DNA of 64,000 nucleotides from Naegleria gruberi (Eukaryota): the NCBI GenBank assembly GCA_000004985.1, contig GG738890.1. The stretch is one strand, 5' to 3'. The notes beneath the pieces were generated by a model. It was not told where the DNA came from. It worked only from the letters and a program-made list of their open reading frames with translations, and searched no databases. A program made the translations under genes and the position numbers. Positions 5,366 through 64,000 of this stretch are shown piece after piece (positions within the stretch are counted from its first letter, which is position 1; the number at the start of each line of letters is the position of its first letter).

Positions 5366-8300
5366 TTATATTTGTTCGGTGGTAAATGTATGCCTTTTTA
5401 GAATGGTGTTCAAGGCATGTGATTCGGTATCCAATTCTAATAAATCAAATGCTGCAATAATCTTTTTGATGGTATCTTGATAGCATTCCTCCCACTCACA
5501 TTCTGAGAATGCAGTAACAACTACTTCACCAGTTTCAATGAAATATTCTTGGACATTGACTCCACTTCTAAGAAATGCTTCAAGATTAATATTTTCTACA
5601 AAGATAGATAGTGTGCTTAATATTTGCTTCTTGAGTGTCTTGATATACTTGTACTCTGAGAATTGAGCAGGTGGATTGTCTGACGAAAGTTCGTTGATGG
5701 AATCAATCAAGCAACGCCATACTCTAAAATTGTTCATTGAACTACCGTAATCTTTTGTTAAAAGAGAAAGTGCTAGAACTGCTTGAATCCTCACTTTGAA
5801 GTTTTCATCTGAAGAAATCCTTTCACACAACATGTTTACAATTTCATCGATTGTTTGAATGGCTATGTTTGTGTTGCCAATCAAATTGCCCAAAGCATAG
5901 CAAGTATTCCACCTTGACTTAACAGAAGATCCGCTGGAAATAAGAGCGCTTGAGAGTGTTTGAAGTAACACTTGTTCTACAGTAGTTAGGTTTGTTGAAG
6001 TCTCTCCTTTTCCTTCCTTGGAAGTACGAACAAAATAAGATACCCCTTCTTGTTGTACGTGGTTGTTCAAAAGCTCTCGGTCAGCAAAGCTGGCAATATT
6101 ACCTAACGCTCTTACAGCATTACAAAGAACCTTATCATTGTCGTGACATGAGCTTAAACTAGAAATTAGAACAGGAATGACAAGCTCTAAATTGCTTCTC
6201 AAATCAGAGGATCTCAATGCATCACATAGGTTTGCAAAGGACCACGAAGCTCTAATTCTTACATTAAGAGATGAATCGCTTAACATATCCTGGAAATATT
6301 TGAGAGACTTGCTCATGAATTGTAAATTGTTTTGAAGTTTTCCAAACAATACAAACACTCCAACGGTACGACATGCAGATGATTTAACATTTGCATTTTC
6401 GTCATTCATACTTGAAAATACTAAGGAAATAATTTTTTCTGACAATTGTTCTCCGAAAGAGTCAAAGGTAGATGGAACAATATTAGAAAATATTGAAACA
6501 GCAGCAGACCTGATGGACTGATTAGAATCTTGAAGTGCATGAGCAAGAACCATATCAGTTATGCTCTCCCATACACTTTCATCAATTTTGAGTGTGTTAA
6601 ATCCTTCTACTGGTTTCTTGAAAGAAACAGCAGGTATCTTTGATTCACTGAACGGTGAGGTAAAATTGTTGACAATTTGAATAACTGTAAGACGAAGAGC
6701 TGTTGAAAGAAATTGTAAATAAAAATAAATCTTTCAACTTACTTTGGTCATTGTGATTCAAACCAATCCTAATCTTTCTCAAAATAATCCTCCAATTATC
6801 CCACAGTAGATCTGGATAGTTTTTGGCAATATTGGCCAAAACTTGTGCAGCTTCTGTTCTTATGACATAGACATACTCTTCGGATAAATATTCTATCAAG
6901 AGTGGAATAATACTCAACTTGGAGTTCCTTAGAATTGCACCAACCTCACTTAGAGGTTCCTTGGTTCCAAATAATGTAGCCAAACATAAAAATGATTGAT
7001 TTTGAACTGTCTTGTCTACTTGTGAAGAATTGATAAGACCAACCAGAATTTCTGAAATGTTTGTAAGGATAATATCACAATTCATCTTATTGTAAGGAGT
7101 ATTTTCGATTAGTAAAGAAAGTGTCTATAATTTTTGCAATGAGAATTGATATGAATGTAATGTCATACTTACTCTGATAGAAACTGGAAGAATAGGAAGA
7201 GACTCTTTTTTGATTGATAATATTAATGTGTAGTGTAATTCTTTGATTATCGATGCAAGAGTTTGAGAAAATGATGTAAATGCAGACTTTGTCTTCATTT
7301 CACTTGCTTGAGCAAGGTAAAGTTCACTATTCTCCAGCATTGAAGCTAACGCTTGAGCTGCTGCTAATCTAACCTTTGAGGATGGATCAAAGAGTAAAAC
7401 TGTAGATAAAGTCTGCTTAGATTTTGGATTTTGATTTGTACTATCATTGTCTGAGAATAAAATCTTCCACTGAGCGAATAACGACTTGAAATCCTTCTTA
7501 GCCAATGTGTTGATAAGTTGGAGTGCTGCTATTCTAATCTTTACAGCATCTCTATTTATATGTGGAGAATCTGAATCTGAATAATCTGAATCTGATGCAA
7601 ATCCTGAGTCTATTGATACTAAATTCAATAACATGATCAAAATAAAAACATACCCTTCTTTGGATTTGTAGAAGATTGAGCAGGGAAAAATATTGTTCCA
7701 AAAAGCATTAGTTTCGAAATGTGAGAAACTATCTTTTCAATATCTGGCAAATGAATCTTGTCACCAGTTTGAATAACACCAGAAAGCAATTTAAGAGAAG
7801 AGTAAAGGACTTTTTGGGCATTTTCTACTGCTATTCCTTTTGTAAGCATTTCCAAATTTTGCAATGTAGAAGAGTAAATTGTCTTGCAATATGGTGATAA
7901 CACTTCTGGGTTTGGTTTTGAGAATAAATTCACAAGGCAATTGATAGATTGTTTCCTTACTTCCAAGTCCGATACAGAAACCTTCATTTGTGGTATTACA
8001 ACTGTTAAAATCGACTTGTAGGTTTCAGAAGAGCATTTGGAGGCCATATCATAAAGAATAAAACTCAATGTCCTCAAACAATCAGCTAATAACCATGTAG
8101 ATGATGATGAAATAAATTGTGTAAACACAGATATTAAATCCTCTCCCCTCTTTTCTGAAAATTGAAACTATCCAAAGGTCAACCATTATAATATGATTAA
8201 TTCAACATACTTCTTGTTTGATTGTCAATGTAGAAATCAATTGGCATAATTTCGAAATTAGCAAATCTTGTGATTCAGCCGATTGTAAATATTGAGCAAT

Positions 8301-60162: not shown

Positions 60163-60854
60163 AAGTAATAAATAGTAGATTAAATACGCAGTTTAGGAAC
60201 TTGTTTGATATTCCAAACCTAATTAGAGCAAAAGACTACAGCACCACAGGTTCCCAAGTTGTCTCCAACCTCAGTACTGATGTGGCTCGACGATGCTTAA
60301 CTTCTCAAATCGGACGGGATGAGGTGCATTCATCGTGATATGGCCGTAGCCATTCAATTCATTATCGCTATGAATATAAAGAATATGGAACTTCTTTTGC
60401 ATAACTTAATGCAACTTAGTAATACTTAAGGTGGTTAACCTATTAAGCTCTGTAAAAAGTTATCCTTGATCAATCGATTCTCACGACCAACTCAATACAA
60501 ACTTTTAGTAATTAAGTTATAACAATTTAGTAACATTATTTTTGGATATTCTTTTTAGTTTCATTGGACGGGAAGCCTGCCAGGAATATGACTGTGCATA
60601 CAGTTGTATGAACAGTGAAGGCAACGAAGACAGAATCTTGTTGGTTCAGGTTTTGTTTGAAGAAATTGATTAGGTTGATCACCCTTCTATAAATTGAATA
60701 TTTGACTGGTAAATTGATGGATGCAAGTTTTGGTTTCTCATTTTCTGATCAAATCGAAATTGAAACTTCAAACAGTAGCTGCCTTAATTTAACCATTCTT
60801 AGCTTAAAATAAAATTTACAAACCAAGAAAGATGAAATTCTAAATTGATATGCT

Positions 60855-60894: not shown

Positions 60895-61200
60895 CATGTA
60901 CTAAATAATTGTTCTGTACCATTACATTTTGTAGTTGAACATTTGCATTAATCACTTGATTATCATGGTTTTTGTTGTCTATTAAATTATGATATTTAAA
61001 AAATTCATAAACATAAATATTTTCAATATTAATGGCTAGTTGCGAGGAACGATGCAACGTTAGTATTTCGACAAATTGTAAACAATAAAATTGAGTTGAT
61101 AAATAATTTTTATGCTCAAAAAAATTAAGAAACATGGTAAACACACCAAGCAAAATCATTGCTGACACCCCTGGCAAAACAGTGACTGCTATCAGAAAAA

Positions 61201-62202
61201 TTATTTCTGCTAGTAAGTCAGCTGACAGCGTTTCAACTTACAAGTCTGGATATCCCAGCAATTGATGAAGGTAGTTCAGTGTCATCACAGACTAAACCTT
61301 TAGATAATAATCAAAGTGGTTCTGGAAATAACCCAGTTTCATCGCAAACTAAACCCTTGGATAACAACCAAGGTGGTTCTGAAAAGAACCTAGATGCTAT
61401 TCTTCACGCCATCACTTTATTGGGTGAGAGAATTAAACATCTTGAAGCAGTTCCACCCATCCTTCAAGAAGCTGATCAACTTGATGACAACTCTGATGAG
61501 GATTCTGCTGAAGATTCCACTGGTAAACATTGGGGTATGTCAACAATCAAGGAGATTAGAAGACACTACGAAGTTGGCGACAGATTAGCCGATGGAGATG
61601 TCTTAAGTTTTGTTTCAGCCAAAACTCTTCGTCGTTATCAAACCAATGATGCTCTTTTGAATAGAGTTCAATCATTAATGGCTAGATTTGAATCCGTTAT
61701 TCATAATCATCGTACTTATCCCCGTTTGCAAGAAATCCAATCAAAGGGCTTGCAAAAGATGATGGAAATGTTGCATTTGAAATCTAGACTACTCCATTTC
61801 GCTTTAAGTCACCCAATGAACGTTGCTAACATCATTGAAATCACAGAATTAGTTTATCTTCTCTGTGAGGTCGAGAAAATTTTCTTGGAAGAAGGTTTGT
61901 TTGATAGTAATTTTGAGGTTGCCACCAATTTCATTCAACCATTCGTACAGAGCAATACGTTCGCTGACATAACCGAAAAAGCACGTAGTAAGAAGAGAGA
62001 GAAAGCTGTTATCAAGACTGCTTTTGTTGGAAAGATTCAAAAACCCAACAAAATGAAAGAGAAGTTGAACAAACCCTACACTTCTCAACACAACAGCTAC
62101 TCTAAGTCTTACAAGAGTAACTCCAATTTTCAAAAATCAGGAGACTCAAAACCAAAGTACAACAACAACAACAGTGGAGGATCCTTCAGCAAGGACCTCT
62201 GA
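61201..62202 (+). CDS. retroelement ORF1 (gag-like), start codon unclear
   Basis: The frame is open from 61186 to the TGA at 62200..62202. The track ORF starts at a GTG (61279) and the first in-frame ATG lies about 110 codons in. An N-terminal 18-aa direct repeat VSSQTKPLDNNQ(S/G)GS occurs twice. The body is helical and K-rich with no zinc knuckle; the C-terminus is K/S/N-rich. Confidence 0.55.
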   Translation, partial: LFLLVSQLTAFQLTSLDIPAIDEGSSVSSQTKPLDNNQSGSGNNPVSSQTKPLDNNQGGSEKNLDAILHAITLLGERIKHLEAVPPILQEADQLDDNSDEDSAEDSTGKHWGMSTIKEIRRHYEVGDRLADGDVLSFVSAKTLRRYQTNDALLNRVQSLMARFESVIHNHRTYPRLQEIQSKGLQKMMEMLHLKSRLLHFALSHPMNVANIIEITELVYLLCEVEKIFLEEGLFDSNFEVATNFIQPFVQSNTFADITEKARSKKREKAVIKTAFVGKIQKPNKMKEKLNKPYTSQHNSYSKSYKSNSNFQKSGDSKPKYNNNNSGGSFSKDL

Positions 62203-64000
62203 CTTGGTGGGTTGTCGTCTTGGCAAGTTTGTAACTCAGTGGGAGAGTTACAACTTCAACCCATTCATAGTGGATTGGATTCGGAATGGAGTTCCAATCT
62301 ACTCAAATCCCACCCTTTGGAAAGAATTCAAGCAAAGGAAGAATTTCTCTCCAAAGGAGACCTCTTGGATGGATCAAGAAATCCAAGAGATGTTGAGTTC
62401 CAATGTCATCGAACTTGGAAACAAATCTACGGTACTCAATCCAATAAACATTGTCCCCAAGAAGGGCTCAGATCAGTTTCGTTTTATTCTGGATCTCAGG
62501 AAAGTAAACTTGGGGATCAAGGATACTTCGTTCAAGATGGACAACATTCAAAAATGTTTGAAGTTTGTTCAGAAAGGAATGTGGGCAACAAAGATAGACC
62601 TGAAGAAAGGCTATTTTCATGTTCCCATCAGAGAGAGTCATCGACACCTTCTGGGATTCAAGTACAAGAGCCTTGTATACCAATTCAAATGCCTTCCATT
62701 TGGTCTAAGTCAAGCTCCCAGAAACTTCACCAAGATAATGAAGGAACTAATGACCAAGTGGAGAAAGCAGGGCATCTTGGTATTCATTTACATCGACGAT
62801 ATATTGATTCTAAGCAACCACAAGGAAACTACCCAACAACACACAGACATAATCTTGAAAGACCTAGAAACATTAGGATGGATTATACAGAAGGAGAAAA
62901 GTGTGTTGACACCTTGTCAATGCATAGAATTTCTGGGTCTGGAATTGGATTTAATATCAGGTTTGGTAAAAATTCCACTCAACAAACAAGCCACTGCGAT
63001 AAAACTGATCCAAGACTTCTTGTCAGCGAACCAACTGAACAGATATGTAGCTTGCAAGAAAGTGGCTCAGTTTCTTGGGAAGATGGAATTTCTAACCCTA
63101 TCAAACCATTATTTTGCACCATTTCTGGCTCGTCTTCGAAAGGATATGGTGAAAGTAGTAAACGACAAATCCTGGCACGCATCGATGAGAATATTCAGAG
63201 GTGCAACCAAAGACCTCAAGATATTGAAAACTCTGATTCAGGAAAACAGTGGAGTTCCATTCGAACTGAACTCAATGAACCCGATTCGAGTGAATTCAGA
63301 TGCTTGCCCAACAGGTTATGGAATTCACGCAGAATCAACCATTACAATTGGAAGATTCAATTCCTCAGAGCACATCAATGTCAAAGAGTTAAAAACACTC
63401 CTCATTTTCTTCACACAAGCAGATCAATTAAACCTTTATGGTCCTGGTCAGGCATTCGAGATAAGAGGCGACAATGTAACAGCAATATCTTATATAAGGA
63501 GAGGTTACGGAGTCATCGAAGAACTCTCACAAATAGCCAGAGATCTCTACAAAATTCTAATGAGAAGAAAATGGTGGATTTCCAAAGTGATTTATATTCC
63601 CTCAAAGGAAAACATTTTGGCGGACAGACTGAGTCGTCTAACAGAATGGAAATCCTCTCAAGAACTATTGAATCTAGTTCAGACAGAATTTGGAGAACAC
63701 CACGTGGACAGATTCGCAACATTGGAATCAACCACAACAATTCAATTCAATTCATGGATAGAGAACGACACATTTCTGAACCCATGGGAACAAAATCTGA
63801 TGAGCTATTGTGCTCCTCCTCTGGGTCTGATATCTCAAGCTCTAGTTCACTGCATCAAGTCAGGAGCCAAAGCGACATTTGTGGTTCCAGATTGGCCCTC
63901 TTCGATATGGTTTCCAGTCTTGCTAAAGATATCAGAAAGAATGATAACTGTTTCGAGAAAGATGCTTATAATAACGCCCTTATCAGAGTTGCAAGACAAG
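62069..64000 (+). CDS. retroelement pol ORF (RT / RNase H / MT-like domain), +1 frame relative to gag, 3' partial
   Basis: The frame opens after the TGA at 62066..62068. It overlaps the gag frame by about 134 nt and runs without a stop to the end of the window. It is not listed in the ORF track because it has no stop inside the window. The first in-frame ATG is near 62360 (SWMDQEIQEM). The RT box C YIDD is at about 62789..62800. Confidence 0.8.

Follow-up and report, generated by a model that had tools for sequence, protein, structure and literature searches.

The window analysed here, the whole stretch of 64,000 nucleotides from contig GG738890.1 of Naegleria gruberi, ends inside a DIRS1-like retroelement in which a second reading frame runs without a stop over the same 1.8 kb as pol. 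The openness of this second frame is kept by selection and is not a codon-usage artefact, while selection on the amino-acid sequence that it specifies is undetectable. We consider it very probable that this frame represents the 5’ two-thirds of a DIRS1-type ORF2, the tyrosine-recombinase (YR) ORF, which would be held open with its sequence left free. The dual coding is real and under strong selection, but it does not amount to a new kind of system, the long pol/YR overlap being a hallmark of the known DIRS1 family that is already published. The features of the element in the window are as follows, the part of the second frame that overlaps pol being referred to as X.

61134..61265, plus strand: gag start segment, with its ATG at 61134, in frame 0 and reaching a TGA at 61263; not in the frame of the gag body.
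61259..62199, plus strand: gag body (ORF1), whose C-terminal tail is rich in N and S; its frame (= 1 mod 3) opens at 61186.
62200..62203, plus strand: gag stop and next base (CTC TGA C), a putative recoding site.
62203..63999, plus strand: X, the probable 5’ part of a DIRS1 ORF2; 599 codons overprinted on pol in pol’s -1 frame, truncated by the window end.
62069..64000, plus strand: pol ORF (ORF3), frame = 2 mod 3, overlapping the end of gag by 134 nt.
62453..62947, plus strand: reverse transcriptase (RT) domain of pol (PF00078 RVT_1, E=7.1e-26, residues 129-293 of the translation from 62069).
63644..63949, plus strand: Dam-like (methyltransferase-like) region of pol (PF05869, residues 526-627, E=1.9e-4, 21.6 bits against a cutoff of 28.1 bits).

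In the gag frame (positions = 1 mod 3), the last stops fall at 61183 and at 62200, the latter a TGA, and from 62203 to 63999 there is none, whereas the third frame contains 61 stops over the same stretch. A first-pass annotation made from the letters of this DNA had described exactly such a layout, with a single TGA (62200..62202), 600 open codons to the window end and pol in the +1 frame relative to gag. The frame scan reproduces the TGA, the uninterrupted run and the phase of pol, the length alone being amended to 599 complete codons. The product of X is rich in S, R and Q (30% S+R+Q), as had also been described. It is basic (pI 9.0) and very hydrophilic (GRAVY -0.96), and the first ATG of X is codon 118. 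An HMM search of this product against Pfam, proposed at the same time, returned no match, in keeping with the remark that no motif could be recognised in it.

The RT of pol is of the Ty3/gypsy-related type and includes a YIDD motif at 62789-62800. The Dam-like match lies below its cutoff; PF05869 is on record for many more distant relatives of this pol, and a Dam-like methyltransferase at the C-terminus of pol, typical of DIRS1-type elements, distinguishes DIRS1/PAT elements from Ngaro/VIPER. Pfam shows only the RVT_1 and Dam-like matches in pol and none in gag or X, and thus neither an aspartic protease nor a DDE integrase. There is no ATG ahead of the conserved N-terminus of pol and, according to the alignment of pol with its relatives, the window end falls about 18 codons short of its stop. 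Five ORFs of the window are identical to proteins of N. gruberi NEG-M and two more match, which places the window in that genome. No other copies of the element were found within the 64 kb by blastn and tblastn.

The gag body, in which Pfam finds no domain, is 74% identical to gag of the closest element obtained (L011) and can be aligned to gag of four other relatives (L001-L004). At its start, L011 reads MVQTSSK...STYKSDYIPVTDNGSS in a single frame, while the window reads ...STYKSGYPSN* in frame 0 and ...IPAIDEGSS in frame 1. Compared with L011, the window has lost one nucleotide near 61253, which puts its gag ATG out of frame. We conclude that the window copy is probably inactive, or that the assembly contains an error at this position; pol and ORF2 are nonetheless intact across the 1.8 kb inside the window. 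We also weighed an intron from GTAAGT at 61213 to AG at 61258, by which the ATG at 61134 would be brought into the gag frame, but rejected it, as L011 reads through this segment without it.

We then compared the number of stops in the X frame with that expected by chance. The null model permuted the synonymous codons of pol among identical amino acids, so that protein and codon usage stayed the same, and 20,000 shuffles were made. Against 0 stops observed, the shuffled sequences contained 36.5 +/- 4.3 and never fewer than 21. Equally long open frames, the outcome that the first-pass annotation had named as counter-evidence, were therefore never obtained by shuffling. A stop in the X frame requires a pol codon ending in T in front of a codon starting with AA, AG or GA, and among the 170 pol codons with such a start the preceding third base is T in none (A in 60, G in 58 and C in 52), while a T-ending codon precedes 137 of the 428 other pol codons. 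As T is missing only ahead of AA/AG/GA codons, the avoidance targets stops and not a dinucleotide.

Host genes served as a second control. In seven genes of the window that are confirmed as annotated proteins, the equivalent frame contains 10.9 stops per 100 codons, a rate that predicts about 65 stops per 599 codons, and its longest open runs are of 25 to 111 codons. A by-product of pol’s amino-acid or codon composition or of dinucleotide bias, with the frame itself unselected, is against this background vanishingly improbable. Third positions of pol are rather T-poor (23%), but nothing else was found in its favour: besides the shuffles, the free use of T-ending codons elsewhere and the host genes, the same avoidance of stops recurs in four elements whose synonymous sites are saturated, and two DIRS1-like elements of similar GC content (L007 and L009) have no long open frame. 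The suggestion that pol’s codon usage suppresses stops in this phase is ruled out by the shuffles and the host genes, and the chance of about 1e-13 that had been given for the open run, correct in pointing to improbability, is conservative. An antisense ORF was also rejected as the cause of the open frame, the longest open run on the minus strand being 78 codons.

Next, the nearest pol proteins were sought in a collection of 5.8 billion proteins and the contigs of the relatives were inspected. The closest are four proteins from metagenomic or SRA assemblies, at 52-57% identity, and one from N. fowleri; a metagenome scan provided one further, partial locus on a JGI contig (L010). L011 is much closer to the window (91% amino-acid identity in pol, 82% nucleotide identity) and was compared with it on a codon alignment accommodating a 6-codon indel. 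In every element of this clade, the gag frame closes once and pol lies in the +1 frame. In the five diverged relatives, with 52-59% identity in pol, the second frame is open across all of the pol that they carry. The frame that follows the gag stop reads as follows in the individual elements.

L001: 926 codons open, to the YR stop.
L002: 920 codons open, to the YR stop.
L003: 650 codons open.
L004: at least 786 codons open, to the contig end.
L010: at least 251 codons open, to the contig end.
L005 (N. fowleri; a decayed copy, with a frameshift and a nonsense codon in pol): 2 stops in the ORF2 frame.
L011 (gag frameshifted): one TAA in 893 codons of the ORF2 frame.

Thus, scattered stops in the second frame beside an intact pol, which the first-pass annotation had proposed to look for in other copies, do not occur in these elements, where the frame is open or nearly so. 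Applied to L001-L004, the pol shuffles predict 29-37 stops for each, and 0 are observed; in a distant marine element (L006), 19.4 are expected and 0 observed. Over the window, L001-L004 and L006 together, about 190 stops are expected and there is none.

Two of these loci deserve a separate remark. In L003 (positions 1158 and 3059), pol has a nonsense codon at its conserved Trp and ORF2 ends about 100 nt past pol, without a recombinase domain, yet the ORF2 frame is open over all of pol. The N. fowleri protein FDP41_013244 (L005, VFQX01000017.1, 5800-8460) is a two-frame chimera, consisting of pol in its first half and then, after a frameshift near 6991, of the ORF2 frame, and for this reason it matches both window pol and window X.

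The relatives also indicate what the open frame belongs to. The nearest are RVT_1 proteins with a flanking ORF that carries Phage_integrase. In L001 and L002, which are complete and carry only gag, pol and YR, the long ORF contains Phage_integrase at residues ~760-905, the stop of pol falling at about codon 620, and L011 and L006 have the same layout with a C-terminal Phage_integrase in the long ORF. A whole-database HMMER search with the window’s 599-residue product retrieved mainly the RT-overlapping frames of other elements, among them proteins of 870-1030 aa that end in Phage_integrase. Continuity of the window frame into YR is inferred from L011 and the other relatives, with the caveat that a TAA interrupts the frame once in L011 and that gag is damaged in both L011 and the window copy, neither of which may be active. 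ORF2 would begin at the gag stop, cross all of pol in pol’s -1 frame over ~620 codons (X) and then encode the recombinase, whose core-binding and catalytic domains would occupy ~300 non-overlapping codons just beyond the window end. The absence of an R..H..R..Y pattern from the window had been noted correctly, and would be explained by a catalytic domain that begins just past the window end.

DIRS-1 of Dictyostelium discoideum, reportedly described by Cappello in 1985, and the long-overlap DIRS1-like elements share with the window clade a gag, a pol of the RT/RH/MT type and a tyrosine-recombinase ORF, and like the window clade they have neither protease nor DDE integrase. In these elements the YR ORF lies extensively over pol with its catalytic part in the non-overlapping 3’ end, and the window frame corresponds to the overlapping part. 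DIRS-1 of D. discoideum has three overlapping ORFs (Wiegand et al. [quoted passage not shown] The window clade differs from the known elements in its heterolobosean host, in an overlap that spans all of pol, and in the arrangement of its frames, ORF2 being in the gag frame after one TGA and pol at +1 relative to gag, a phase that is -1 in L006, L007 and L009. L006 has a long pol/ORF2 overlap; L007 and L009 have short ones only. DIRS1-like elements further carry inverted terminal repeats and, towards the 3’ end, an internal complementary region (ICR); here the 3’ part of the element falls past the window end and the contigs of the relatives have no termini. The same 2011 survey confirmed DIRS1-like elements in N. 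gruberi by similarity only, the copies found being too degenerate (PMC3266345). The DIRS1-like copy at the window locus is well preserved, and it comes from a heterolobosean, a host in which the occurrence of the family had been described as uncertain.

We asked what in X is selected beyond the absence of stops. To obtain the identity forced by pol, the pol protein, the codon usage and the no-stop rule were kept for each element and synonymous codons were otherwise drawn at random. Window X is 26-30% identical to X of its relatives, against 25-28% under this null (z 0.4-2.1). Between the window and L011, pol is 92% identical on the codon alignment with a dN/dS of 0.066, while X is 69% identical, about equal to the null. 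At conserved degenerate residues of pol, the excess third-position identity is about +0.06, compared with +0.06 in the non-overlapped YR control and +0.03 in gag. None of the three tests (third positions, identity against the null, divergence from L011) therefore shows amino-acid constraint on X in excess of the controls, and the synonymous-constraint analysis that the first-pass annotation had called for reveals no excess conservation of overlapped pol relative to gag and YR.

These comparisons bear directly on the possibility that X is a genuine overprinted product that arose de novo on pol and has a sequence-dependent function, for example in nucleic-acid binding or targeting. X is basic (pI 9-11.6) and S/R/Q-rich in all four elements measured, every pair of X products is slightly more alike than the null predicts, z reaching 3-5 among pairs of L001-L004, and dS against L011 is lower in pol than in gag (0.68 versus 1.06). 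However, the composition of X follows from pol’s codon positions, its database matches are other pol-overlapping frames, Pfam recognises nothing in it, and it has diverged to 69% identity where pol remains at 92%. As for the lower dS, divergence between window 62201-64000 and L011 1138-2973 is a mosaic, with pS of 0.2-0.3 at both ends of pol and of 0.6-0.73 in codons 60-300; the dips in dS co-vary with dN, which points to recombination between copies of different element lineages and not to constraint on X. We regard such an overprinted product as improbable. X is not an independent gene with a conserved product, because it is conserved no more than pol forces it to be. Of the first reading offered for this frame, a DIRS-1-type overlapping ORF forming a second gene, the kind of ORF holds, as the 5’ part of the YR ORF, but the independent gene does not. 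In the reading that we prefer, a stop-free but sequence-free part of ORF2, X would be kept open because ribosomes would have to cross it to make the recombinase. It would act as a basic, hydrophilic translated spacer or tether and not as a folded domain, and, from its composition, it is probably disordered.

How ribosomes enter ORF2 and pol is a separate question, on which the single stop between gag and ORF2 bears. Gag and ORF2 share one frame with one TGA between them in 8/8 elements (L001-L005, L010, L011 and the window), the gag stop is TGA in 8/8 and the base after it is C in 7/8. Host genes in the window use other stops: 26 long host ORFs (at least 250 aa), some of whose ends may be exon ends, finish with TAA in 23, TAG in 3 and TGA in 0 cases, and the seven confirmed host genes with TAA in 6 and TAG in 1. 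Conserved pol sequence starts only 4-13 codons past the gag stop and there is no conserved pol ATG. In the window, 8.6 stops are expected in X upstream of the ATG at codon 118 and 0 are seen. We tentatively propose, at a little under an even chance, that ORF2 is entered by read-through of the gag UGA and pol by a +1 shift at the same UGA. Read-through would give a Gag-X-YR fusion, while a +1 shift (NNN U GAC, reading GAC as Asp) would give Gag-Pol, and, in an element without a protease of its own, the Gag moiety would carry both enzymes into the particle.

The rival concerns entry only. ORF2 would be a separate cistron, whose YR protein (X-YR or shorter) starts inside the frame, either at a semi-conserved ATG/TTG some 40 codons past the gag stop, at a different AUG or near-cognate codon, or by a -1 slip from the pol frame; the in-frame arrangement of gag and ORF2 would then be a historical accident of the window clade. 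The codon of ORF2 that overlaps the conserved Trp of pol’s “LWK”, about 40 codons in, is ATG in 5/8 elements and TTG in 3/8, including the window (62317-62319), where it is a possible internal start of ORF2. Many distant long ORF2 proteins in databases start with their own ATG near the 5’ end of pol, and ORF II of D. discoideum can be expressed alone as a GFP fusion (PMC3950715). Folding of 90 nt after the gag stop in 7 elements showed no RNA structure of consistent stability or shape (z -1.7 to +1.9; N. fowleri -3.9), and thus no structure that would stimulate read-through; the codon before the stop varies (CTC, CAA, GGC, AAA), with no conserved slippery codon. Finally, ORF2 of L006 is +1 to gag and not in frame with it, which means that read-through cannot be a general DIRS1 mechanism, and, as the eight elements form one clade, their shared frame is close to a single evolutionary observation. 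On the other hand, neither the window nor L011 has an ATG before codon 118 of ORF2, and L010, despite an ATG at codon 16, reads TTG at the semi-conserved column. Between the TGA and this column, about 17 stops are expected over the 8 elements and 0 are observed, although a start at the column would not require their absence, and scanning ribosomes would need to pass all the AUGs of gag. We consider a separate cistron unlikely, but with an appreciable chance of being correct. The preferred entry, read-through of the gag UGA, is the gag-readthrough extension that had been listed as a second, competing option for the open frame; it is in fact compatible with the first and gains indirect support from the common frame, the single TGA in 8/8 elements and the lack of stops before the first ATG, with read-through itself staying a proposal.

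A bolder form of this proposal, which is a long shot, makes the single gag UGA a three-way switch, at which termination would yield Gag, a +1 shift Gag-Pol, and read-through a Gag-X-YR protein of ~1,250 residues with the 600-residue unconstrained X as a tether. If this is true, the sole reason for the existence of X is that ribosomes can get to the recombinase only by traversing pol in a second frame, and a dual-coding region would have been selected purely for the absence of stops.

Both recoding events have known counterparts. In the gammaretrovirus MuLV, Gag-Pol is made by read-through of a UAG that is followed by a pseudoknot. The window clade resembles MuLV in having gag, one stop and a long ORF for a replication enzyme in the same frame, so that read-through by a minority of ribosomes would give a Gag fusion. 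It differs in the stop codon, in the downstream ORF, which is not overprinted in MuLV, and in that no conserved structure was found after the window clade’s stop. For the +1 shift, the counterparts are the shifty stops of antizyme (UCC UGA U) and of bacterial prfB (CUU UGA C), where UGA occupies the A site in the zero frame and a +1 shift brings in GAY (Asp). The window reads CUC UGA C, NNN UGA C is present in 7/8 elements, and conserved pol begins a few codons later with no conserved ATG. In contrast to antizyme and prfB, the window clade showed no stimulator, be it a polyamine-sensing element, a pseudoknot or a Shine-Dalgarno-like sequence, and the P-site codon is not conserved. The likeness of the window site to a shifty stop is purely one of arrangement, and a +1 shift at this site is putative.

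Since 1985, long pol/YR overlaps have reportedly been noted as an oddity in the structure of DIRS1-like elements, and in the literature that we searched, selection in the overlap was not tested nor the translation of ORF2 and ORF3 explained. The window locus and its relatives quantify this selection, the overlap being stop-free yet under no sequence constraint beyond that of pol, and recoding at the gag UGA provides a concrete hypothesis for how ORF2 and ORF3 may be translated. Two points are added to the published overlap: that only openness is selected, and that the open run begins directly at the gag stop. Both the stop-free, sequence-free result and the in-frame gag-TGA-ORF2 layout are relevant to researchers on DIRS elements and on recoding. 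For annotators, they are a warning that such overlapping frames are real coding sequence even where no domain matches.

The surroundings of the element were also searched with Rfam. A Histone3 stem-loop match at 61351-61395 was below threshold and was taken as chance, and no 5S gene is present near the N. fowleri copy. The only match at gathering score in the 64 kb is a 5S rRNA gene (RF00001, 105 bits) at 60233-60351 on the minus strand, 0.7-0.9 kb upstream of the gag ATG.
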